Assembly (NCBI GenBank): GCA_963769975.1
Contig: CAVYNS010000003.1
Coordinates: 384,434 to 448,433 of the forward strand
Reading direction: 5' to 3'
Source of the DNA: an uncultured Chloroflexia bacterium
GTDB taxonomy: Bacteria; Chloroflexota; Dehalococcoidia; GIF9; AB-539-J10
Length of the DNA stretch: 64,000 nucleotides
The position numbers and the translations under genes are program-made. Of this stretch, positions 4,071 through 51,569 are shown piece after piece. Numbering within the stretch: position 1 is the stretch's first letter; each line of letters begins with the position of its first letter. The notes beneath the pieces were generated by a model. The model was given only the letters and a program-made list of their open reading frames with translations. It did no database searches and was not told the DNA's origin.

Positions 4071-5393
4071 ATGAACTACAGCCAAGCGGAAGAGTATCTC
4101 AATAGTTTTACTAATTATGAGCTGATTCCGGGCATAACTTATGCCCAGCCTGGTTACAGCTTAAGGCATGTGGAAGAGTTGCTAAACCGTATGGGCAACC
4201 CTCAGTTGGCAGCCAAGACGATTCATATCGCCGGCACCAAGGGGAAAGGGAGTGTGGCGGCTATGATTGCTCAGGTTTTGAGTAGTTCAGGATATAAAAC
4301 AGGACGGTATACCTCCCCCCATCTTCATAATCTAAGGGAGCGTATTAGCATAGATAGCAACTTGATTTCTGAAGCTGATTTTGCTGCGGCTATGGCAGAA
4401 GTCAAGCTTTTTATCGAATCCATAAAGCAAGACGCAACTTTTAGGCAATTGACTTATTTCGAGGCATTGACTGCGCTGGCATTCGCTTATTTCCAGAAAA
4501 AGCGGGTGGACTTTCAAGTACTGGAGGTCGGTTTAGGAGGCAGGCTCGATGCCACTAATGTTGTGGCTAATCCTGCGGTCTGTATTATCACTTCTATCAG
4601 CCTGGACCATACTCAGATTCTGGGTAATAGCCTGGAGGAAATAGCCCGGGAAAAAGCAGGCATTATCAAGTCCGGCTGTTGGGTGGTAATTTCTCCCCAG
4701 TCAGAAGAGGCAGCTTCGGTAATCACCGATATTTGTCGGGAGAAAAAAGCGAAGGTGGTTCAGGTAGGCAAGGATGTCACCTGGCATAAGATAGGCGGTG
4801 ACCTTCATCAGCAATCGCTAGAGATCGAGGGTAGAACAAATAAATATCAAGTTAGCATTCCTCTTTTAGGCGACTTCCAGCTTGAGAATGCCGCCACTGC
4901 CGTAGCTGCTTTAGAGATTTTGGCTTCTCAGGGCTTTGCCATCTCAACCGCCGATATTACTCAAGGGCTTGCCCGAGTTAAGTGGCCGGGGCGATTTCAA
5001 ATTTTGCAGCAACACCCTACGGTGTTGGTTGATGGTGCTCATAACGTGGCGTCAATGAAAAAGTTGGTGAGTAATATCAAAGCATACTTCGCTCACAAAC
5101 GGATTTTTCTTGTTTTTGGGACATCCTGTGACAAAGACATACCAGGGATAATAAATGAGCTAGTTCCCCTCTCCCCCCAAGTTATAGTCACGCAGGCATC
5201 CCACTCCCGTGCCGCCCCTCTTTCAACTCTGGTTGCCGAGTTCGCCAAACAAGGCATTGAGTCTAAAACCGGAGAAACTGTAACCAAAGCTATATCCCGA
5301 GCTTTGTCTCTGGCAGGCAGGACAGATATTATCTGCGTTACCGGCTCTCTGTTTGTCGTGGCGGAAGCGTTAGATTATTTCTCAGGGGGCTGA
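4071..5393 (+). CDS. folC: folylpolyglutamate synthase / dihydrofolate synthase
   Basis: 440 aa; Mur-ligase P-loop GTKGKGS and the DGAHN motif. Confidence 0.85.
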   Translation: MNYSQAEEYLNSFTNYELIPGITYAQPGYSLRHVEELLNRMGNPQLAAKTIHIAGTKGKGSVAAMIAQVLSSSGYKTGRYTSPHLHNLRERISIDSNLISEADFAAAMAEVKLFIESIKQDATFRQLTYFEALTALAFAYFQKKRVDFQVLEVGLGGRLDATNVVANPAVCIITSISLDHTQILGNSLEEIAREKAGIIKSGCWVVISPQSEEAASVITDICREKKAKVVQVGKDVTWHKIGGDLHQQSLEIEGRTNKYQVSIPLLGDFQLENAATAVAALEILASQGFAISTADITQGLARVKWPGRFQILQQHPTVLVDGAHNVASMKKLVSNIKAYFAHKRIFLVFGTSCDKDIPGIINELVPLSPQVIVTQASHSRAAPLSTLVAEFAKQGIESKTGETVTKAISRALSLAGRTDIICVTGSLFVVAEALDYFSGG

Positions 5394-6280: not shown

Positions 6281-7993
6281 ATGAATTTAAAGAAGCTTAT
6301 CTCTGTGGCTAGAGGGGAAACACCGGCTGATTTGCTCCTGAAAAATTGCCGGATAGTAAATACTTTTATCGGAGAAATAGAGCAAGGCAACGTAGCCATC
6401 TATGACGATAGGATTGCCGGCGTAGGGGATTATGATAATGCCAAGGAAATTATAGATTTACAAGGCCGGTTTTTAGCTCCCGGGCTGATTAACGGGCATA
6501 CGCATATAGAAAGCTCTATGCTTCACCCGGCAAGGTATGCTCAAGCCGTGGTCACCAGAGGCACTCTGGCTGTGGTTACTGACTTACACGAAATCGCCAA
6601 CGTTTGTGGACCTGCAGGCATAAAATTTGTCATGGATTGGGCACGAAAGCTCCCACTGGATATGTTGTTCATGGCTCCGTCATGCGTGCCAGCAACCCAT
6701 CTGGAGACATCAGGTGCTCAAATCAGTTCCAAAGAAGTAAAGAAAATTCTAGCCTCCCCCAATGTAATTGGTCTGGGAGAGATGATGAACTTTCCCGGCG
6801 TAGTCAGCGGGGATGAAGAGGTTTTGCAGAAGATCGGTGCCTCTCAGGGCAGAGTTATTGATGGACACGCTCCGGGACTCAGTGGTAAAGAACTGAATGC
6901 TTACTTGTCCGCTGGCATTCTTTCCGACCATGAATCCACTACCCTGGAGGGAGGAAAGGAGAAGTTGCGCCGGGGCATGTACCTCATGATTCGAGAAGGC
7001 TCTTCAGAAAAGAACTTGGATGCCCTTCTGCTTCTGGTTACCGACAATACTTATAAAAGATGCTTCTTCGTGGTGGATGACCGTAGTTGCTCGGATTTAC
7101 TTCGGGAAGGCGATATTGACGCTGTGGTCCGAAAGGCTATCAACCAAGGTCTGGAGCCAGTTCGGGCAATTCAAATGGCAACGATTAATACTGCCGAGTA
7201 TTTCAGACTCCATGACAGAGGAGCCATTGGTCCGGGTTATATGGCCAATCTCATAACCATCACCAACCTGGCTAAACTAGAGATAGACATGGTGTTTTAC
7301 CAGGGAAAGCTAGTAGCAAGTCAAGGCAAGCTCTTGTCCTCCTTGCCTCCTGTTACTCTGGAGCTAAAAGACACGGTACGCATCAAGCCCATTATGGTGA
7401 AATCGTTGTCATTGCGAGCGAAGCAAAGCAATCTCAGTGAGGAAAGCTACCCGGTTATCGAAATCATCCCCGGACAGATAGTCACCAAAAAGACAATAGA
7501 AGAGATAAAAGTTGTGAATGGGACACTTATGCCCGATGTGGAAAGAGATATTCTAAAGCTGGTGGTGGTGGAAAGACACAAGGCTAGCGGCAATATCGGC
7601 TTGGGACTGGTCAAGGGATTTGGCTTGAAAAAAGGAGCATTAGCCTCATCAGTGGCTCACGACTCTCACAACATAATAGCGGTGGGCACCAATGACCTCG
7701 AAATCCTCAAGGCAATTGAGGAAATTAATAGGCTGCAAGGCGGGCTGGTTGTTTGCGCCGACCTGGAAATTCTCGCTTCTTTACCGTTGCCTATCGCCGG
7801 CCTCCTTTCACCGGAGCCGCTCGATGTGGTCGTATCCCAGTATGAAATTGTTGAGAGGGCTGCTGCCAGCCTGGGCAACTTACCTCCAGCTCCATTTTCT
7901 ATCTTATCTTTCCTGGCTCTGCCTGTGATTCCCGAGCTCAGGTTGACCGACTTAGGCTTAGTGGACGTGGTAGAGTTTAAGTTGCTCAAGTAG
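6281..7993 (+). CDS. ade: adenine deaminase
   Basis: 570 aa amidohydrolase with the HTHIES metal-binding motif and adenine-deaminase C-terminal domain; contains an in-frame copy of a palindromic-repeat arm at 7406-7433. Confidence 0.85.
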   Translation: MNLKKLISVARGETPADLLLKNCRIVNTFIGEIEQGNVAIYDDRIAGVGDYDNAKEIIDLQGRFLAPGLINGHTHIESSMLHPARYAQAVVTRGTLAVVTDLHEIANVCGPAGIKFVMDWARKLPLDMLFMAPSCVPATHLETSGAQISSKEVKKILASPNVIGLGEMMNFPGVVSGDEEVLQKIGASQGRVIDGHAPGLSGKELNAYLSAGILSDHESTTLEGGKEKLRRGMYLMIREGSSEKNLDALLLLVTDNTYKRCFFVVDDRSCSDLLREGDIDAVVRKAINQGLEPVRAIQMATINTAEYFRLHDRGAIGPGYMANLITITNLAKLEIDMVFYQGKLVASQGKLLSSLPPVTLELKDTVRIKPIMVKSLSLRAKQSNLSEESYPVIEIIPGQIVTKKTIEEIKVVNGTLMPDVERDILKLVVVERHKASGNIGLGLVKGFGLKKGALASSVAHDSHNIIAVGTNDLEILKAIEEINRLQGGLVVCADLEILASLPLPIAGLLSPEPLDVVVSQYEIVERAAASLGNLPPAPFSILSFLALPVIPELRLTDLGLVDVVEFKLLK

Positions 7994-35520: not shown

Positions 35521-35660
35521 GGGATTGTGGGGACACAATAACATAGAACTTTTGCCGTTCAGCGTGCGCGCTTAATGTCGCATAATCACAATACATCACT
35601 CCCAGTTCGTGTAATGAAATAACAAAACAGGCAATTGTTACCCGAACTGCACGAAATATC
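35521..35660. repeat. mosaic intergenic repeat family, copy B (includes a degenerate gene 3' end ...DCGDTIT*)
   Basis: gattgtggggacacaataacatagaacttttgccgttcag ... aataacaaaacaggcaattgttacccgaactg. Confidence 0.6.
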
Positions 35661-36377: not shown

Positions 36378-36515
36378 GGAGTCACAAAACGCTGCTTTGT
36401 GCAGTGCGCCACAATCGGGATTGTGGGGACACAATAGCATAGAATTTTTGCCGTTCAGGGTGTGTGTTTGAGGTAACAAAACAGACTATTGTTGCCCGAG
36501 TTGAACAATACGTCA
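36378..36515. repeat. mosaic intergenic repeat family, copy C (with a 24-codon ORF ending ...DCGDTIA*)
   Basis: gtcacaaaacgctgctttgtgcag ... gattgtggggacacaatagcatagaatttttgccgttcagggtgtgtgtttgaggtaacaaaacagactattgttgcccgagttg. Confidence 0.6.
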
Positions 36516-40497: not shown

Positions 40498-40875
40498 GAG
40501 CAGCTCGGGGTGAGCAGCTCGAAAGCAGCTTTTTTGAAGCCCTGATTACGAAGGGTCTCTTGGGGCAACTAGTCAAAACCCAGAAGCAGCTTCTGAATTT
40601 ACGTTTGGCCGAGCAGCTCGGAGCGCTGCTCGGAGCAGCTTTTTTGACCCCCTGATTACGAAGGCGTTATCTTAAGGCAACTAATCAAGGTTCGGAAGCA
40701 GCTCAAGATTTTACGTTGGCCGAGCAGCTCCGAGCAGCTGCTCAAGCAGCTTTTTTGAAGCCCTGATTACGAAGGCGCTATCTTAAGGCAACTAATCAAG
40801 GTCCGGAAGCAGCTCAAGATTTTACGTTGGCCGAGCAGCTCCGAGCAGCTCAAAAGCAGCTTTTTCTTGAGGAGA
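40498..40875. repeat. non-coding tandem repeat, 111-bp unit, ~3.4 copies
   Basis: Units start at 40498, 40611, 40722 and 40833; each contains gagcagctc(g/c)g ... agcagcttttttga(a/c)gccctgattacgaagg ... aaggcaactaatcaagg. Confidence 0.8.
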
Positions 40876-40985: not shown

Positions 40986-41516
40986 ATGAGGCTGCGGGTA
41001 AAAGCTAGGGCGTGGGCTCAAGCACACGCGGAGGGTAACATGGCCCAAGTATCAGTTACAATCGATGCTGTTAGACGTGGCACACTGCGGGATGTGTGGA
41101 CGCTACTACTAAAAGAGAAGGTAGCAGAAGGATACCCGTCAATTGGACTCTATTTTTTGCCAATCTGGATAAGCCCATCCCAGGCAGATATTATAATCGG
41201 TGAGCTCCTGCAGCGACCCGACAAGAGCACGACTCCTGATATCTTCCTGGCCAGTATCAACGCGATTGAGTCCAAGATTGAATGCGCCACAATTTATCTG
41301 GAGGGTGAGACGTTTTACGCCAGGCTGCAACTTTTTCATCACGATGAGGTTCGCGAAGTAAAATGTCCAATAGCCGTAGCGGTAGCCCTGGCGTCCAGGG
41401 CAGGAGCATCCACTTTGGTTGAAGAAGCAACATGGGACAAAGCTGCCCTGACGATAAATCGGGACTGGACATTGGGTGTTGGTAATGCTGTCCCAGCGAC
41501 CGGCAAAACTGGGTGA
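40986..41516 (+). CDS. DUF151-family bifunctional nuclease-like protein
   Basis: 176 aa; pattern LPIWIS ... EAxxI ... RP ... D ... ETFYARLQL ... VKCPIAVAVALA matches the BFN/DUF151 fold. Confidence 0.55.
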   Translation: MRLRVKARAWAQAHAEGNMAQVSVTIDAVRRGTLRDVWTLLLKEKVAEGYPSIGLYFLPIWISPSQADIIIGELLQRPDKSTTPDIFLASINAIESKIECATIYLEGETFYARLQLFHHDEVREVKCPIAVAVALASRAGASTLVEEATWDKAALTINRDWTLGVGNAVPATGKTG

Positions 41517-41722
41517 CGCTAGCGCTTGACCCTATATCGGCCCTACCAAAACAACCTCGGTGGAGACGGCTGCTCGGGAGACAGGGGTAAGCCTCGGACT
41601 GTCTTATCGCTAACGCCTTGCCACTTTTGTTGCGTAATGGTGCTTCAATCGGCACGGGAAGGTTAGTATTTCCGCTTTCAACCGTTATTCCTTTACCCTA
41701 GATAATTCAACAAAAGAATCAA

Positions 41723-41947
41723 TCAGGGTGCGCTTTTCCCATTGATTACGTCCCTCAGCTTTAGCCCGTTGGCCTTCAGGACCCCAAAGATATATGCCGG
41801 ACTGCAACCCAGCTCGGTGGCCGCCGCCACCACGTTACGGTGTGCCTTTAACGACTCACAAACGTTTTTGAATGGTATATTAAGCCGTCTGCGTCCTAAA
41901 CCATTCACCGTTACCATTCCCCCGCAGTGCGGACAAGTAACTTTCAC
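41723..41947 (-). CDS. small zinc-ribbon / HTH DNA-binding protein
   Basis: 74 aa; CPHCGG zinc ribbon followed by a helix-turn-helix-like segment. Confidence 0.45.
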   Translation of the reverse strand: MKVTCPHCGGMVTVNGLGRRRLNIPFKNVCESLKAHRNVVAAATELGCSPAYIFGVLKANGLKLRDVINGKSAP

Positions 41948-41974
41948 CCCGCTTTACTCTCCAAATTTTTTCTC

Positions 41975-42155
41975 TGACACTTTCGTGCCTACTGCGCATG
42001 GCTTTACGCACTGACACTTCACTGACAGTACTCTTGACACTTTACTGACACTTTCTGACACTTTCAAAGTGTCAGTGCGTGGGCTGACAATTGTCAGAGA
42101 ATTTTTTAGCTTCAATCCGTGCGTAAGTGTCAAAGTGTCAGAACTGTCAGTGTCT
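41975..42155. repeat. iteron array of the 9-mer TGACACTTT (at least 5 direct and 3 inverted copies)
   Basis: Direct copies at 41975, 42012, 42035, 42046 and 42055; inverted AAAGTGTCA copies at 42066, 42130 and 42139; a TGACAATTGTCA palindrome at 42086. Confidence 0.7.
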
Positions 42156-42165
42156 CTATACTTTT

Positions 42166-43416
42166 TCAAACCGCCTCGTATCTCCTGACTTGCCGTCCTC
42201 TATCCGTTTTCTGGTACGAGTTCTTGATTAGTCCAATCTTCGCAAGTGGCGCTACCAGGCTTTCGAGTTCCTTCGCTGATATTGAGAGCCGCCGGTAAAC
42301 TTCCCGCTCCGGGACCGACCCGCCCTCAGCCCGCAAAAATTCTAGTAATTTAATCTCTTGAGCCTTGCCACTTGACGTTCCGAAGCTGGCGAATACTTCA
42401 GTTACGCTCGCTTCTAGATAGTTCCCCACTGCAATCGCCGCTTCTAGGTGGTCTACTGATATACTCTCTGACATCGTGTCTGCCGCATAGAGTAAAGCTA
42501 TCTTCCAAATGAAGTCCTGAATCCTGACAATAAGCGTGGGTATCAATCCCGGTTGCTGACAGCGCCGGTAATATTCGTGGTAGTATTCCTCAAACAGTGT
42601 GCTTGCCTCGTCTGAGATGGTTATCTCACCGTTGGGCACGTCCTCAGCCCAGCTACGAATCTGATTCAACTCCCGAACTAGCTCATTGCGCTTGTCCAGG
42701 TCAACCTTTGGCGGATTCGGCATGGGGTCTTTTGGCAAGCCATAAAAGTAACACCAGCGATTTGCGAAGCCGCCGTATATGTCCCTCTCGGTGAGCGCCT
42801 TTTGTAGCCAATCCTGTGTCGTGCCCGCCATTATGGAGAGGAAAGGCTCTTTAGCTGGCTTCACGTCTTTTTGATGCACTGGCGGATTTAACAGGTCTGG
42901 AGAATCGTACAACTCGTTGAGCGCTGGGATAATGTTACCTAGCGAATCTTGTTTGGCCTTTGCCAGTAAAGATAGCAGCTCGCCAAGCTGTATGAGCCTG
43001 ACTTTCCGCTCTCCGGCCAGTTCATCCAGCAAGCCTTCATAGCTTCTGATTCCCCTAAGTGTTTTGAATGGCGGACTTGGGTCATCCTCTGAGTACGCGT
43101 GAAGCATGTCCAATACGCTGCGGCCCCTTGACCATGTGGTGTCTTTGCGTGTTAGCCCGCTTCTACCTACAAGGCAGTTAAAGAAGTTAGGGAATAGCCT
43201 TGTTGCGTGATACGTAAAAAGGCGCCTGCCGATGGTACACCCAAAGACTTGAAGAAACGTGGCATAGTGGAAGGCATCTGCCGCCTCGGTAGTATTTGCT
43301 ACCATATCTCGATAGTCTTTCAATAAGCCTCGCCATGCGATAGCGGGTATTTCCAGACTGGCCGGAGTAGTAATCGGCTTTGAGAGTGCCTTTTCCGTAA
43401 TTATTATCTCTGGCAT
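42166..43416 (-). CDS. primase-associated protein (DUF3987-like C-terminal domain family)
   Basis: 416 aa with no P-loop; overlaps the upstream primase gene by 13 nt; arrangement typical of integrative-element replication modules. Confidence 0.4.
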   Translation of the reverse strand: MPEIIITEKALSKPITTPASLEIPAIAWRGLLKDYRDMVANTTEAADAFHYATFLQVFGCTIGRRLFTYHATRLFPNFFNCLVGRSGLTRKDTTWSRGRSVLDMLHAYSEDDPSPPFKTLRGIRSYEGLLDELAGERKVRLIQLGELLSLLAKAKQDSLGNIIPALNELYDSPDLLNPPVHQKDVKPAKEPFLSIMAGTTQDWLQKALTERDIYGGFANRWCYFYGLPKDPMPNPPKVDLDKRNELVRELNQIRSWAEDVPNGEITISDEASTLFEEYYHEYYRRCQQPGLIPTLIVRIQDFIWKIALLYAADTMSESISVDHLEAAIAVGNYLEASVTEVFASFGTSSGKAQEIKLLEFLRAEGGSVPEREVYRRLSISAKELESLVAPLAKIGLIKNSYQKTDRGRQVRRYEAV

Positions 43417-44369
43417 AGCTGCCCCCCTGTCGCTAGTAAATCGTCCAACCCCTTAAACTCTGCGTTCCAATCAGCCTCAAAGGTGCGTATTCTACGCTTG
43501 ATTAGGCAAGCAATTAAGGCGTTCTTATGGAGATTGACAACAGGATAAGATAGCTTGTCCATGTCAAAGGCAACAATCGCCCTTGCTGGTGCGAGTTCAC
43601 GGACTATCGGTATAATGCCCGGCCAATTGCCAACACCAGGCACGGCCAAAACAACACGCTCCAGCCTCAGAGCGGCAATATCGGCTTTAATCGGCCCTTC
43701 GGTAATCCACATTTCGCTCTTAGTGGACACTGGCCCTGCTACATGTACCGGCGCTCCTGGAGAACAGCCGGCGAAGTAGCCGCGAGAGCTTAACCACCTA
43801 TAGCGGCTACCGTTCTCTGTGTTGTCACACCGGATTTGCAATCCTATAATACGGCGCTTAGTGTCCCTTACGGGTATCAGAATCCCGGCTGGGCCTGAGA
43901 GCCTAACTTCCTCAAACCCAAGCCAGAAGCCCGGGACGCCGATTAGCTTGAATCCCTTTGCTTTGAGACTTTGCACTACGCCGCGCCTCCCGTTTACCGG
44001 GAATGATTTGTACTCTAGTCTGAGAATCTCATCGTCCGTTAGTCCCCGGCGTTGTAAGTTTGTGCGGTGGGTATCTGATAGTGACAGTTCTACGAGCAGG
44101 GCGTGGTAAGCTCTGTCAAGCACGTCTGGCGCCGCTTTTGGTATTTGCTTTGCATCAGGTCTAGGCTTAGGTAGCGGTAATGACTTCATGGTGTCCAGTT
44201 TGTGTATCCAACCTGCACCTTTCTTGCCTGCGGGTTTATCACTCTCAATGCGAGCGCAGATAGCGGCTTCCCCATCCTGTGATATAAGACACCAATCAGG
44301 CTTACCGCATACCGGGCACAGGTTATGCTTGGTAACACGAATCCACTTGTTAGCCGTTGCCGTGGTCAT
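43404..44369 (-). CDS. zinc-ribbon + TOPRIM primase (P4-type/DnaG-like)
   Basis: 321 aa; CPVCGKPDWC ... AAIC zinc ribbon, then a TOPRIM with conserved E (ITEGP) and DxD (AFDMD). Confidence 0.6.
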   Translation of the reverse strand: MTTATANKWIRVTKHNLCPVCGKPDWCLISQDGEAAICARIESDKPAGKKGAGWIHKLDTMKSLPLPKPRPDAKQIPKAAPDVLDRAYHALLVELSLSDTHRTNLQRRGLTDDEILRLEYKSFPVNGRRGVVQSLKAKGFKLIGVPGFWLGFEEVRLSGPAGILIPVRDTKRRIIGLQIRCDNTENGSRYRWLSSRGYFAGCSPGAPVHVAGPVSTKSEMWITEGPIKADIAALRLERVVLAVPGVGNWPGIIPIVRELAPARAIVAFDMDKLSYPVVNLHKNALIACLIKRRIRTFEADWNAEFKGLDDLLATGGQLCQR

Positions 44370-44597
44370 TTCTTTCCCTCACTTTCAGCCTTCAATTCAC
44401 GCTGGCACTCAGCGATTAGACGTGAAAAGAACTTCCGCCACTGTTGCCACGCCAGCGGTGATGCTGGCGGCCCTGGCCGAATGCTCATAATGACCTTAAC
44501 TTCGGCCTTATCTCTTGTCTTCGTTGGCTGCTTCGCCATCATCTTTTCTTTTGAGAGGGCGTATAGTCAGTTCACCGTCTGCAATCATCTTGAAATC

Positions 44598-44804
44598 CTA
44601 TCTCTCCGAGTGAGGGATAACTTTTAGCAAATGGTCGGCAGTAATTGGAACCTTCTGTCCTGGTTTGATGTTGTGGGCATCAACGAACTCCCTGGGGAGA
44701 TTCAGGTAGTAGGAACCATTGATGCAAATCACCCGCCGATTCTCCGTAATGGGGTCATTCACTTTGTGTTTGACTCTGTTTTTCCTTAGGTTTACTTTTG
44801 ACAT
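44598..44804 (-). CDS. AbrB/MazE/SpoVT-family transcriptional regulator
   Basis: 68 aa; swapped-hairpin beta-barrel motif (VICINGSYYLNLPREFVD). Confidence 0.6.
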   Translation of the reverse strand: MSKVNLRKNRVKHKVNDPITENRRVICINGSYYLNLPREFVDAHNIKPGQKVPITADHLLKVIPHSER

Positions 44805-45593: not shown

Positions 45594-48317
45594 GTGGTTG
45601 ACTACAGCATAGAGGTTTCAGTTACCGAGGGTACGACAAATACTGAGCGTGGAAACTTGTTAGTAGAGTTGATGCGCGATGTATTTGATGCGACTAACCA
45701 TACCAGTGGTCCGTCTATTAGGGTCACTGGTATGGAGATAGATACTACTGCTACTCATAATGTCACCGGCGAGAAGATATATGCCGAGTGCAAGGCTTAT
45801 AGAGAACCTATACCAGCAGATACTATTTCAAAACTATTGGGCAACGTTTTTCTTAAGAACGTAGACCAGGGATGGCTGGTAACTACATCTAAGCTTTCTA
45901 AGGACGCCGAGGGATCAAAGGAAGAGTGGGAGAAGAAACCTCCAGAAGAACGTCGTCGATTACAGGTCTACAATCCTCCTAGACTGCTAACTCTGTTAAT
46001 AGCTTCAAACCGTATCTTTGATCCAGCCAAGATAACAGCTACCTCAGGAACGGAGCAGGGTAACTGGTATTTTCTTCTGACTAATCTTGGTCGTTACTGG
46101 GCAAAGTTGGTAGTAGAGGCAGGCATACCGAGTAGAGTCATCGTCTATAATGCACAGACAGGCGTGTTAGTAAACGATGCGGAGCTTTTGAAAAAACTCA
46201 AACTGACTGACACTAGCCTCCGCGATTTCAATTGGCCAATTCCTTCTCCCAATGGTTCAGGGGTGGGAGAGTTGCTTGCCTACTTATCGGAAACGGTTGT
46301 TGATGTCGCGACTGGTGATACTTGGGCGGATTATCGTCCTGCCAGACCTCAAGACTTTGTGGGTCGGCATGATCTTCAAGATACTATGCGAGATTTATTT
46401 CTAGGTATTAGGAATAGAAGTACTAACACTCGTTTATTCTCAATAACTGGACCGTCGGGATGGGGTAAAAGTTCTTTAATTGCGAAACTACGGGACCGCT
46501 GTAGTAATAAGGCAAATCGTAAGAAATTTTACATGACTGCATTTGATATGAGAGCCGCCAAATCGTCAAACTATGTTTCCGCTGCTCTCCTAAGGTGTTT
46601 CTCGTCAGCGATCCAACGAAATTTTATTCTTCGGCCTGTTATGCCACTGCAAGTGGGAGCTCCCACAACGCCTCTTGAAAGTGAATCCTTACAAGATTGT
46701 TTACAACAGCTTAAAGATAAGAACAAAGTACTCATCTTAGTTTTTGATCAGTTTGAGGAGGTACTTACTAAACCCGAATTGAGGCAGCTATTTGATAGAC
46801 TTCGGTTACTCGCTTTGTCAGTGGATGCACAAAAAGAGAATCTTGTCCTTGGCTTTGCTTGGAAAAGCGATGCTTTTCTTCCACAAGATCACCCCGCGTA
46901 CTATCTTTGGCATCAACTCAAGGACAGACGTCTTGATCTGGCTGTGCCACGTTTTGGTTCAAAGGACGTCTCGCAAGCCCTAACACACTTCCAAACCGAA
47001 TTGGGACAACGCTTGAATCCTGTTTTACGCTCACAATTGGTACAGCATTGTCAAGGTTTTCCTTGGCTACTCAAAAAGCTGTGTATTCATGTTCTTAACC
47101 TCGTAAGACGTGATCTAAGTCAGCTGCAGGTGCTAGAGCGAGGACTAGATGTACGAGGACTGTTCGAAGCAGATTTAAGTGGGCTTTCCAGTAAGGAAAC
47201 ACTGTGCCTTAAAGAAATCGCGCGGTTGGCACCTGTTGAATGGGTACAAATTGTCGAACAATTCGGGAATGATACATACACTTCACTACTAGGTAAACTG
47301 TTGATAGTTCGTAGTGGCGACAGGCTGAACCCATATTGGGATATTTTCGGAGACTATCTGCGCACCAATGAAATCCCACATGTGCCTGTGTCTTTTCTGC
47401 CAGGAACTGAAATCCGAACTTTAGCAAGAGCAGCTGTTATTACTGTTATGAACAGGCCAGCAGGAGTCACATTAGAAAAACTGAGCACATCGCTGTCTAT
47501 AAATAGTAGGTCAGCAGGTAATGTTGTTCGAGATTTACAGATGTTTAGTCTTGCAGAGAGAAAAGGTGATCATATCGTTTCAACGATAGCTATCAAGGAG
47601 ACAAGAGATGCAGTCGCTGAGATCGCAAGACTAATCGCTCGCGCCTTAAATAACCACACCTTTACAATTATACTTCGTAGGAATGTAGCAAAGGGTTCAG
47701 AGATTACTGAACAGGATTTGCTTGGGTTCTTTAATGAGGCATTCCGGTATGCGTCACTCCGTGATGTCACAAAGAGAATGTACACACTCCGACTCGCCAA
47801 ATACTTGACGGCAACCCGCTTTCTCGAGCGTGTTCCTAGCGTATGGATACTCATTGATGAATTGACGGGACAGTTGATATTAATGCCAAGAGTTAGAGGT
47901 GCAGGTGAGTTTCTAGGAGATGCTCCTCCTGGAAGAGTTTTGGAGGTGCTGCAGAAGCTGTCGGAGTCTCCTGTGCCGAGAGCAGTCTTGAATAAGTCTC
48001 GTCTGAGGAACGCGACAGCATGTGCAATAATGCTGGAGCTCGCAAGCACACGTGATGGCATCGTTTACAGGCTAGAAGATACTAAGGACATGGAGGCTTC
48101 ACTAGTTGGAGCAGTAACCAACACTAGGTCTTTTAAGATAGTTTCAGAGCTTATCTGCAAATCTCCCAACATATCAGCAACGGAAATCGGTAAAACTCTG
48201 TCTGCCCACCTTGATTTGCCTTGGAGTGAGGCATCAAACCTTCGCCGTGGTAACGCGCTTCGTAGGTGGGTTCGGTGGTCGCAAAGTCAGACTTCCACAC
48301 GATCGGAGCCTGTATAG
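45594..48317 (+). CDS. STAND-type P-loop NTPase with an N-terminal Mrr-like PD-(D/E)xK nuclease domain (Avs-like antiviral STAND candidate)
   Basis: 907 aa; N-terminus GMEID ... EKIYAECKAY (D ... ExK); Walker A GPSGWGKSS; Walker B LILVFDQFEE; ~450-aa C-terminal helical region. Confidence 0.75.
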   Translation: MVDYSIEVSVTEGTTNTERGNLLVELMRDVFDATNHTSGPSIRVTGMEIDTTATHNVTGEKIYAECKAYREPIPADTISKLLGNVFLKNVDQGWLVTTSKLSKDAEGSKEEWEKKPPEERRRLQVYNPPRLLTLLIASNRIFDPAKITATSGTEQGNWYFLLTNLGRYWAKLVVEAGIPSRVIVYNAQTGVLVNDAELLKKLKLTDTSLRDFNWPIPSPNGSGVGELLAYLSETVVDVATGDTWADYRPARPQDFVGRHDLQDTMRDLFLGIRNRSTNTRLFSITGPSGWGKSSLIAKLRDRCSNKANRKKFYMTAFDMRAAKSSNYVSAALLRCFSSAIQRNFILRPVMPLQVGAPTTPLESESLQDCLQQLKDKNKVLILVFDQFEEVLTKPELRQLFDRLRLLALSVDAQKENLVLGFAWKSDAFLPQDHPAYYLWHQLKDRRLDLAVPRFGSKDVSQALTHFQTELGQRLNPVLRSQLVQHCQGFPWLLKKLCIHVLNLVRRDLSQLQVLERGLDVRGLFEADLSGLSSKETLCLKEIARLAPVEWVQIVEQFGNDTYTSLLGKLLIVRSGDRLNPYWDIFGDYLRTNEIPHVPVSFLPGTEIRTLARAAVITVMNRPAGVTLEKLSTSLSINSRSAGNVVRDLQMFSLAERKGDHIVSTIAIKETRDAVAEIARLIARALNNHTFTIILRRNVAKGSEITEQDLLGFFNEAFRYASLRDVTKRMYTLRLAKYLTATRFLERVPSVWILIDELTGQLILMPRVRGAGEFLGDAPPGRVLEVLQKLSESPVPRAVLNKSRLRNATACAIMLELASTRDGIVYRLEDTKDMEASLVGAVTNTRSFKIVSELICKSPNISATEIGKTLSAHLDLPWSEASNLRRGNALRRWVRWSQSQTSTRSEPV

Positions 48318-48454: not shown

Positions 48455-48500
48455 CGAATTGTTACGCTAGAGGTAACAAAACAGGCTTTTGTGACTTTAA
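48455..48500. repeat. mosaic intergenic repeat family, partial copy E
   Basis: ttgttacgctagaggtaacaaaacaggcttttgtgac matches the 3' module of copies B and C. Confidence 0.45.
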
Positions 48501-50636: not shown

Positions 50637-51569
50637 CTAGATATTGTTCGCGTTTCCTTGGAATATTTGCTTTCTACAAATCAAGGTGACGTCTCGGACT
50701 AGGCCTAAAGTTCTGGGAATTCGCTCTATTATAGTTGGTATTGCCTGAACGATTCCGAGTCCTTGAGTATAATCTTGTGGCTCCAGAAAACCTCCTGGAT
50801 ATCGTGTATAACTCTCGTGAGGGAAGGTTAACACTCCAAAGATATAACACTGACCTGCTGCCTGACCAAATTTCACCGAGGAATAGGTAACAATTGATTC
50901 TTTGTACTCAGGTAGGTATTCTGCAAAAACGGTTTTGACTTCATTTTCCTTCTGCTCTAATAATGGATGTGTTGTGAAGAGTGCGTCAGCAACTCTGATC
51001 AGTCCCTCTATGCCGAGTACACGGGGGGACGAGTTCATGGGCAGCTTGGCTAGCCGCTGTTGATCACTGTTAACTAGTTTCTTCACTTGGGTGATGGCTG
51101 TCTTGTAGTCTCGGTTATCAAGTGAGTTCAGTATACTCATCATCTCGTTGCCGGGCTTTTCTTCAATGATCTTCAATAGAGGTTGTGGAGTTCGATGAGT
51201 TGTGAGCAGTTCCTTAATGGTTACATCACCAATCGATAAGCAGAAAGCTTTCATGGCCTTTTCAATTGCTTGCTGGATGTGATAAACGCTCAGAGCAAGT
51301 TCCCCATGTTGAAAGAGTAAATTTGCCGCCCTATGATCTGCTTCTCCAGCGCCTAGGTATTTATCAGCAATGTCCAAAGAAGACGAATCTCGCCTTATCA
51401 CGACATGCTTGAGGGCACGCTTTACGAGTACTTCTGTTCGGAGCGAGTCTATCTGGTTAGCTTTCGGCATCAACTTCTTGATACCCGGCTTAACCCTAAG
51501 CCATAGCGTCTCGATTAGTTCATTTCCATTTTCGTTTGCCATTTGGTCGCCCGGAATGAATAACATCAT
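50637..51569 (-). CDS. hypothetical protein (310 aa)
   Basis: ORF only; follows the EEP gene on the same strand. Confidence 0.45.
   Translation of the reverse strand: MMLFIPGDQMANENGNELIETLWLRVKPGIKKLMPKANQIDSLRTEVLVKRALKHVVIRRDSSSLDIADKYLGAGEADHRAANLLFQHGELALSVYHIQQAIEKAMKAFCLSIGDVTIKELLTTHRTPQPLLKIIEEKPGNEMMSILNSLDNRDYKTAITQVKKLVNSDQQRLAKLPMNSSPRVLGIEGLIRVADALFTTHPLLEQKENEVKTVFAEYLPEYKESIVTYSSVKFGQAAGQCYIFGVLTFPHESYTRYPGGFLEPQDYTQGLGIVQAIPTIIERIPRTLGLVRDVTLICRKQIFQGNANNI

Follow-up and report, generated by a model that had tools for sequence, protein, structure and literature searches.

A repeat array downstream of a DUF3987 gene as the probable replication origin of a small integrative element from Chloroflexota

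The repeat array described here lies in the window (the whole stretch of 64,000 nucleotides that was analysed) within a compact module whose genes are all encoded on the minus strand, in the order AbrB/MazE-like 68-aa gene, 58-aa gene, 321-aa primase-like gene, 416-aa DUF3987 gene, array and 74-aa gene. The genes and coding features of this region are the following, with coordinates given as positions in the window:

44598-44804, minus strand: gene of an AbrB/MazE-like protein of 68 aa (MazE_antitoxin match of 20.6 bits, under the cut-off of 24.7)
44366-44542, minus strand: gene of a 58-aa protein with homologs in 11 loci
43404-44369, minus strand: 321-aa primase-like gene, encoding an N-terminal Cys-rich (Zn-binding-like) segment and a DUF3854 (Toprim-related) domain
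42166-43416, minus strand: 416-aa DUF3987 protein gene, encoding a predicted MCM-like AAA+ core (residues ~25-340) and a C-terminal winged helix
42169-42384, minus strand: region coding for the predicted winged helix, residues 345-416 (helix 349-364, strand 368-369, helix 370-376, helix 381-393, strands 397-403 and 409-415)
42295-42297 and 42292-42294, minus strand: codons of Y374 and R375, respectively, the positions that track the repeat core
41723-41947, minus strand: gene of a 74-aa protein with a Zn-ribbon (CPHCG) and an HTH, whose homolog at locus L021 gives weak HTH_28/HTH_23 matches
41584-41679, minus strand: remnant of a small tyrosine integrase, its first ~32 codons, in which tblastn with the L087 integrase aligns ESGNTNLPVPIEAPLRNKSGKALAIRQSEA before similarity is lost

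The primase-like gene is the first of a replication pair and overlaps the DUF3987 gene by 13 nt. Its 321-aa product passes the Pfam gathering threshold for DUF3854 (PF12965; 25.2 bits versus 23, residues 220-317), and primase homologs are found upstream of the DUF3987 gene in 40 related loci. DUF3854 proteins of the CyRepA type are the Rep proteins of cyanobacterial plasmids (PMC10079941). Similarly, the 416-aa protein passes the gathering threshold for DUF3987 (PF13148; 30.8 bits versus 27, E 2.3e-7, residues 125-343), a precomputed PF13148 match exists for most of its homologs, and its AlphaFold model predicts an MCM-like AAA+ core followed by a C-terminal winged helix, the best fold matches being MCM subunits. 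DUF3987 has been predicted earlier to be a helicase of mobile elements (PMC5862659); the domain is widespread in mobile elements and satellites, and the literature that we found treats its members as predicted helicases only (PMC5862659, PMC10803314). Some homologs carry a fused N-terminal part of the Prim-Pol/PriCT_1, DnaB_N or Toprim-like type. We propose that the DUF3987 protein serves as both initiator and self-loading helicase of the module. The canonical Walker A motif GxxxxGK[ST] is absent, and the P-loop reads GRSGLTRKDT, with R90 and K91 invariant; as this P-loop is non-canonical, the ATPase and helicase activity of the protein is not assured.

The 68-aa and 58-aa products are probable regulators of the module, and an AbrB/MazE-like gene occupies the same position upstream of the primase gene at locus L003. 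Pfam returned no match for the window's own 74-aa protein; at L021 its homolog gene overlaps the start of a Phage_integrase gene, and the protein is likely a regulator or a recombination-directionality factor encoded ahead of the integrase. Tyrosine or serine recombinases stand beside the same module in relatives, and in L021 and L087 a small integrase follows directly after the 74-aa gene, in keeping with the first of the two contexts, an integrative or a plasmid-like element, that the preliminary description had put forward for the array. In the window itself, Pfam scans of neighbouring ORFs and tblastn with all related-locus ORFs found no intact integrase, only the 32-codon remnant, and similarity to all related loci ends near 41590. 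The conserved module spans ~41.6-44.8 kb, within which the primase gene, the helicase gene and the array are intact. It is a truncated remnant, most likely of a decayed integrative element of a Dehalococcoidia-type bacterium, and since the integrase has been lost, an origin at this place may no longer be used. In addition, a tRNA scan found no tRNAs in the window and an Rfam scan of 33-52 kb found no families; thus, neither a tRNA attachment site nor a known RNA explains the region.

The array takes up the 218 nt from the stop of the DUF3987 gene to the start of the 74-aa gene, so that its placement between the primase/DUF3987 genes and the 74-aa gene is as had been described, and its first core lies 16 nt past the DUF3987 stop codon (at 42166). 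In the order read from the helicase gene, it consists of the following parts:

42128-42149, minus strand: gene-proximal set of three direct cores, TGACA on the gene strand (42145-42149, 42136-42140 and 42128-42132) at 8-9 nt spacing; the same triple is present in aligned relatives
42097-42127, minus strand: non-iteron spacer of 31 nt, CTTACGCACGGATTGAAGCTAAAAAATTCTC on the gene strand, apparent in the A+T profile
42055-42096, either strand: two palindromic iteron pairs, TGACAATTGTCA (42085-42096) and CTGACACTTTCAAAGTGTCAG (42055-42075), at which core orientation flips
42012-42054, plus strand: distal run of four further cores (42046, 42035, 42023 and 42012), with TGACA on the plus strand, opposite to the proximal set
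41964-41983, plus strand: solitary last iteron TGACACTTT (41975-41983), after which an A-tract comes on the gene strand (T6 at 41966-41971 on the plus strand)

The five direct and three inverted copies of a 9-mer that were first noticed here are all present, five on the plus strand and three on the minus strand: six are exact copies of TGACACTTT, at 41975(+), 42035(+), 42046(+), 42056(+), 42066(-) and 42132(-), and two carry one mismatch, at 42012(+) and 42124(-). The reported palindrome was likewise found again, as the first of the two pairs listed, and a search for the 9-mer elsewhere, as had been suggested, gave no exact copy outside the array in the whole 64 kb window. The repeating element is better described as a 5-nt core, TGACA, in a unit of 9-11 nt with the consensus cTGACAcTT. 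Twelve TGACA/TGTCA cores occur within the 175 bp of 41975-42149, where the density elsewhere in the window predicts 0.36 (Poisson P = 8e-15), and any other 175-bp stretch of the 64 kb window holds three at most; the repeats are non-random. Five cores lie on the gene strand and seven on the other. TRF resolved a period of 11 with 5 copies at 42009-42063 and a period of 8-9 with 3 copies at 42125-42150. In the distal run the start-to-start spacing is 10-12 nt, about one helical turn, and the last iteron is separated from this run by a 37-nt gap, with the 74-aa gene starting 28 nt downstream of it. Within the array, A+T content peaks in the spacer (~25-30 nt at 70-75% A+T), which separates the proximal triple from the first palindrome and lies away from the array's exact centre; the spacer also carries a GAAGCTAAAAAA box (42102-42113) and is a candidate unwinding or priming region.

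Hundreds of homologs of the DUF3987 protein were found, the named ones coming from Chloroflexota/Dehalococcoidia MAGs, and relatives were fetched from 3 genome loci, 79 metagenome loci and 9 further loci reached via exact-protein look-up. The scaffold of the array recurs in the corresponding position in approximately 50 related loci, from Chloroflexota-type metagenome contigs and MAGs, whose 3' flank could be read. In ~40 loci with homologs of 47-85% identity, the 260 nt past the stop codon hold 3-6 TGACA and 5-10 TGTCA, compared with a background of 0.2-1 per 260 nt, and more distant homologs (27-43% identity) are followed there by arrays of other short repeats, built of GGGACAC, GTCAAC, ACCAACA or TCCGACA. 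An alignment of 30 arrays gave one order throughout: proximal triple, spacer with GAAGCTAA box, two palindromes, distal run, second AAGCTAA box, last unit and A-tract. In some lineages all copies, in both orientations, have switched together to TACCA or CGACA with the spacers unchanged. ACTACCA stands in place of ACTGACA in L015, L016, L023, L024, L026 and L052, and CCGACA in place of ACTGACA in L038, while L033 is mixed. The spacer and its AGCTAA box are kept across the TGACA, TACCA and CGACA loci while the cores change, and both palindromes stand at the same alignment columns with the core switched to match. The gene that follows is variable, since a 74-aa homolog comes after the array in 23 of the 47 array-bearing loci and is absent in the other 24, which indicates that the array goes with the DUF3987 3' end and not with the gene after it; the distal-end motif GAAGTG[core]GTAAAAA is kept in relatives whatever gene comes downstream.

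Beyond these loci, tblastn of the PLSDB plasmids with the DUF3987 protein gave no matches, leaving a known plasmid replicon unsupported, and the IMG/VR viral contigs yielded neither relatives of the DUF3987 protein nor matches to the proximal array pattern. In annotated phages only 'helicase/primase' genes of 22-25% identity were found. The best phage homolog, in Rhodococcus phage Trogglehumper (22% identity), is followed by two terminator hairpins and no iterons, so that the rule of gene then iterons does not reach that far.

To find which protein might read the repeats, the loci were grouped by core and the columns of the protein alignments were screened for group separation. In the DUF3987 protein, screened over its full length, a single column tells TGACA from TACCA loci, namely 375, with R in 38/38 of the former and H in 8/8 of the latter, and the CGACA loci with 'HR' at residues 374/375 are set apart from TGACA loci by columns 374 (Y to H), 379 and 381. 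Within the winged helix, these four residues (374, 375, 379 and 381) map to helix 2, the turn or the beginning of helix 3. The primase alignment held no column separating TGACA from TACCA loci, on which ground the primase was rejected as the iteron reader. The 74-aa protein was rejected as well, being absent in 24 of the 47 array loci and having an identical HTH in L083 (TACCA) and L006 (TGACA); thus, of the array binders that the preliminary description had put forward, the 74-aa and AbrB-like proteins, neither is probably the repeat reader. Predictions of the core from the protein, fixed before the DNA look-up, were correct in four of four cases: as predicted, TACCA arrays follow the genes of the YH proteins P0022 and P0068 (10 and 12 copies), and CGACA arrays follow those of the HR proteins P0035 and P0049 (9 and 10 copies). 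Further combinations at residues 374/375 are paired with these cores:

YK: CGACA
YS: CCGACA / CCAACA
YQ: ACTACA
YY: TGTGACA

The expectation of a longer ACNGACACTG unit for YK proteins, as in L055, was only partly right, as L087 has plain CCGACA. The relation of residues 374/375 to the core is real as read from the alignments, but it is no simple one-to-one code, because YK and YS proteins also occur with CGACA-type arrays and a YY protein with TGACA. The covarying residues stand at the end of helix 2 and not in the canonical recognition helix 3, and a direct base contact by them is unproven. From the covariation and the four correct predictions, we infer that the helicase would bind the iterons specifically. 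Neighbour-joining trees, without support values, were built from the winged helix without residues 374/375 (~70 columns) and from the ATPase part (~320 columns). The YH/TACCA loci fall in three separate places of the winged-helix tree, and the ATPase tree is incongruent with it, which suggests that switches occurred repeatedly and that winged helix and array were shuffled as one cassette.

Taken with the layout of known systems, these observations lead us to the view that the array is probably the replication origin (ori) of a small integrative element, read by the winged helix of the DUF3987 protein; the assignment of origin function rests on analogy and on the covariation. In the mechanism that we propose, the C-terminal winged helix would recognise the 5-nt cores, of which two opposed sets, three proximal direct cores and five to six distal cores at about one helical turn, flank the two palindromes and the A+T-rich spacer. 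Binding would assemble two oppositely facing oligomers, the spacer would melt, and the neighbouring DUF3854/Zn-finger primase could then prime synthesis, so that replication would initiate at the array. We advance more tentatively, and with rather more doubt than confidence, a wider proposal: winged helix and array may form a portable specificity cassette for a whole undescribed DUF3987/MCM-like replicon family in Chloroflexota, in which one or two adjacent residue changes (R375H with TGACA to TACCA; Y374H with TGACA to CGACA) would retarget the initiator, all ~12 sites would follow and new incompatibility types would arise, the ~3 kb regulator-primase-helicase-ori module being a native minimal replicon.

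An origin of replication and an autoregulatory operator had both been put forward at the outset. The origin is clearly the better supported of the two, since the array is tied to the helicase 3' end in ~50 loci, its core co-varies with the winged helix and its layout agrees with the experimentally defined origins of SaPI and SCCmec (PMC9371898, PMC7581432). As an operator, transcriptional or autoregulatory, the array would control the 74-aa and integrase genes or the replication operon, with the 74-aa protein, the AbrB-like protein or the DUF3987 winged helix as repressor. The short distance of the last iteron from the 74-aa gene, two weak sigma-70-like matches inside the array and the small DNA-binding proteins flanking the module would fit such a site, and the repeats of many iteron replicons are also autoregulatory, as is established for iteron plasmids (PMC4980987). 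However, the array and its distal end are kept in all loci, with or without a 74-aa homolog, the HTH of that protein does not change with the core, and relatives with the same array have HTH_17 or HTH_31 regulators in place of the AbrB-like gene. Moreover, 12 sites over 175 bp in two opposed sets go far beyond what an operator needs, and the promoter-like matches are within shuffle range (2 versus 0.7 +/- 0.9), a promoter and terminator scan of 41.5-42.5 kb having found nothing above shuffle expectation; we therefore consider an operator unlikely. A centromere-like partition site, a packaging site (pac/cos-type) or another cis site for segregation or encapsidation of the excised element seems less likely still. 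Short direct and inverted repeats at helical spacing do typify plasmid centromeres too, as is well established, and the covariation shows only that winged helix and repeats match, not what the complex does. Yet no ParA, ParB, ParM or terminase genes occur in the conserved module of the window and the relatives examined, nothing but the winged helix tracks the repeats, and this belongs to an MCM-like AAA+ protein that has a primase as its partner, and the studied cases of a gene followed by repeats are origins (PMC9371898, PMC7581432, PMC4234260).

Two further readings place the signal outside protein-bound DNA. The array might act as a folded RNA (a site of termination, attenuation or processing where the helicase mRNA ends) or as a single-stranded DNA hairpin or cruciform, the core changes then being compensatory. 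The gene strand indeed folds well, at -39.4 kcal/mol as ssDNA (z = -4.7) and at -69.8 kcal/mol as RNA (z = -4.25), with the three units of the proximal set pairing to three distal ones; complementarity survives when the core switches in both orientations, and the pRN1 origin 3' of its rep gene is a stem-loop of ~100 nt (PMC4234260). The array folds better than its shuffles because its iterons are inverted, however, and the arms differ: forward and reverse copies are unequal (5 versus 7 here, 3-6 versus 5-10 in relatives), arm spacings of 8-9 versus 10-12 nt require bulges in the stem, and the last iteron has no partner. As a fold also accounts neither for a single protein residue tracking the core nor for the four correct predictions, and no Rfam family matched, we give this reading a slimmer chance than a partition or packaging site; hairpin extrusion after melting would fit the origin model and is no true alternative to it. 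Finally, the 71-aa ORF at 41954-42169 on the minus strand might be a real small protein whose repetitive peptide is reflected in the repeats, which we hold to be highly improbable. In its favour, the frame stays open across the entire array in the window, gene callers predict small ORFs at the arrays of relatives as well, and an ATG or GTG often comes directly after the helicase stop codon. In the window, by contrast, the only start is a TTG overlapping the DUF3987 stop codon, the equivalent frame stops after 37-87 codons at differing places in relatives, and core switches change the residues non-conservatively (e.g., TDTTDILTLT to TTITTILPLT), while a peptide repeat cannot explain inverted copies and palindromes. 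The earlier judgement that this ORF is just the translation of the repeats is thus supported, and small ORFs that gene annotation places on arrays of this kind, of 37-87 aa in relatives and 71 aa here, are probably spurious.

If the array is the origin, as we favour, DUF3987 proteins gain a concrete cis site and a testable candidate DNA-reading domain, and the covariation provides a single-residue prediction for initiator-origin specificity. Arrays with different cores (TGACA, TACCA, CGACA, CTACA and others), each paired in nature with a matching winged helix, make up a data set on the evolution of initiator-origin specificity, hence of incompatibility. Dehalococcoidia matter for bioremediation, and we know of no replicating vector available for them. 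The compact native primase-helicase-ori module is a candidate for such a vector and, if the reading is true, could seed the first ones.

An origin design of this kind is known from staphylococcal islands and has not been described before for the DUF3987 family or for Chloroflexota. In SaPI, the C-terminal WHD of Rep binds 6-12 penta- or hexanucleotide iterons directly downstream of rep, in opposed sets on both sides of an AT-rich centre (PMC9371898), and Cch2 of SCCmec binds iterons just downstream of its own gene (PMC7581432). The module resembles SaPI/PICI in that the putative origin lies directly downstream of the helicase ORF, a primase gene, separate or fused, lies just upstream, and the whole belongs to an integrative element (PMC9371898, PMC7581432). 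The counts are alike too, with 12 short cores here and 6-12 iterons in SaPI, in two opposed sets in both cases, and the helicase carries a predicted C-terminal winged helix, the domain that confers origin specificity in SaPI. On the other hand, the A+T-rich centre is much shorter here (~25-30 nt, 70-75% A+T) and off the exact centre, the proteins are a DUF3987 helicase and a DUF3854/Toprim-type primase, and the scaffold includes conserved GAAGCTAA boxes as well as the two palindromic iteron pairs. The hosts belong to Chloroflexota and not to Firmicutes, and no helper phage or packaging genes were seen. A profile search of PDB chains with the DUF3987 protein gave no replication-protein matches (including the solved SaPI Rep) at E <= 1; in view of this lack of sequence homology to SaPI Rep/PriRep, we suggest that the protein may work like SaPI Rep and do not place it in that protein family. 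The SCCmec system differs further: only three iterons have been found for Cch2, its partners are an A-family polymerase and MP and not a Toprim-type primase, Cch/Cch2 show no protein homology to the DUF3987 module by sequence, and the AAGTG identity with the array may be coincidence.

The archaeal plasmid pRN1, whose ORF904 combines primase, SF3 helicase and WH, has its origin within ~166 bp downstream of orf904 and so shares with the module a cis element downstream of the rep gene and a protein with a winged helix (PMC4234260). A long imperfect hairpin can likewise form from the array (z -4.7), with arms unequal in copies and spacing. In pRN1, however, the ~100-nt stem-loop is conserved in structure and not in sequence and lacks iterons, whereas here 5-nt cores are conserved and covary with the protein. 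The alpha protein of satellite phage P4 combines primase, helicase and a C-terminal winged helix for origin binding in a single fused polypeptide that acts on short repeated octamers and needs two separated iteron sites, ori and crr; here the primase is a separate gene, and the 64 kb window holds one cluster, with no crr-like second cluster. The iterons of theta plasmids (RepA/pi/TrfA, Rep_3) are typically 17-22 bp long, direct and usually located by DnaA boxes, and the WH1-WH2 Rep recruits the host DnaB helicase. By contrast, the array has 5-nt cores in 9-11-nt units in both orientations, and the proposed initiator is itself AAA+/helicase-like; the module gave no Pfam match to Rep_3, and no DnaA box was found within the array, the nearest DnaA-box-like matches being at 41164 and 43703. 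What the array shares with these theta plasmids is the arrangement of initiator sites, here putative, at helical spacing and a specificity that co-evolves with the initiator (PMC4980987).

The position of the iteron array 3' of the DUF3987 stop codon was kept in every domain architecture that we surveyed among the related loci (L083-L090, L032, L037 and L044-L047). Some of the DUF3987 homologs in this set are stand-alone proteins of about 410 aa with the DUF3854 primase encoded as a separate gene, and others carry an N-terminal fusion to a Prim-Pol plus PriCT_1, a DnaB_N or a Toprim-like domain; the array follows the stop codon in all of them.

A second conserved element, the GAAGCTAA(AAAA) box, was recognized inside the arrays:

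42102-42113: GAAGCTAA(AAAA) box of the window; counterparts occur, for example, at 7278-7300 of the related locus L001 and after position 4185 of the related locus L087

Most arrays contain two such boxes in one orientation, one in the proximal spacer and one ahead of the last iteron, and the second is degenerate in the window (AAAGCCATG). The box stays conserved where the iteron core switches, and it might act in priming or in unwinding, or bind a second factor. Some arrays are mosaic with respect to the core: that of L033 (5200-5460) combines six TGACA with six CGACA units, and in several TGACA arrays (L018, L017, L021 and L031) one half-site of the first palindrome is TACCA, CGACA or TGCCA. 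These mosaics may represent intermediates of core switching. In many relatives an ATG or GTG lies 2-4 nt past the DUF3987 stop codon (TAAAAATGC..., TGAAAATGC...), and gene callers predict ORFs of 37-87 aa spanning the array; unlike many of these relatives, the window has no ATG after the stop codon.

The surroundings of the replication module include the following features:

35521-35638, 36417-36492 and 48470-48492: repeated sequence, three occurrences, all in direct orientation
40512-40865: 111-nt tandem repeat, 3.2 copies, 85% matches
40986-41516, plus strand: BFN-domain nuclease gene
41584-41679, minus strand: small tyrosine integrase remnant, from alignment to the L087 integrase
45594-48317, plus strand: 907-aa protein with an N-terminal Mrr_cat restriction-endonuclease-like domain and an nSTAND1/AAA_16 NTPase
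50637-51569, minus strand: HEPN-domain protein

In L087, an integrase gene lies directly beyond the 74-aa gene. Only about 32 N-terminal codons (ESGNTNLPVPIEAPLRNKSGKALAIRQSEA) can be aligned to this integrase, and because likeness to all relatives ends past them, the element is truncated in the window. The tandem repeat is non-coding and immediately upstream of the BFN-domain nuclease gene. The 907-aa gene adjoins the module, and its predicted domain combination is a defence-type architecture. Copies of 65 nt among the direct repeats are 83% identical, and there is in addition a core of 23 nt, GAGGTAACAAAACAGNCTNTTGT, which includes the inverted GTAACAA/TTGTTAC. Two copies, 12.0 kb apart, flank a low-GC stretch containing the module together with the genes for the BFN nuclease and the Mrr_cat-nSTAND protein. 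The repeats possibly mark att-like boundaries of an island; the stretch that they flank yielded no recombinase.

One close relative, L002 (CAYOUP010000024.1; 73% identity, TGACA array), comes from a MAG labelled Hyphomicrobiaceae, which reflects either a binning error or cross-phylum transfer; all other named sources are Chloroflexota/Dehalococcoidia.

The P-loop region of the DUF3987 protein was also compared:

43141-43170, minus strand: P-loop position of the DUF3987 protein, residues 83-92

This position reads VGRSGLTRKD(T93) rather than GxxxxGK[ST]. The fold is MCM-like and the lysine is shifted, which makes the ATPase competence of the protein uncertain. R90 and K91 are unchanged across 48 homologs, as are E146, T199/T200 and R220.
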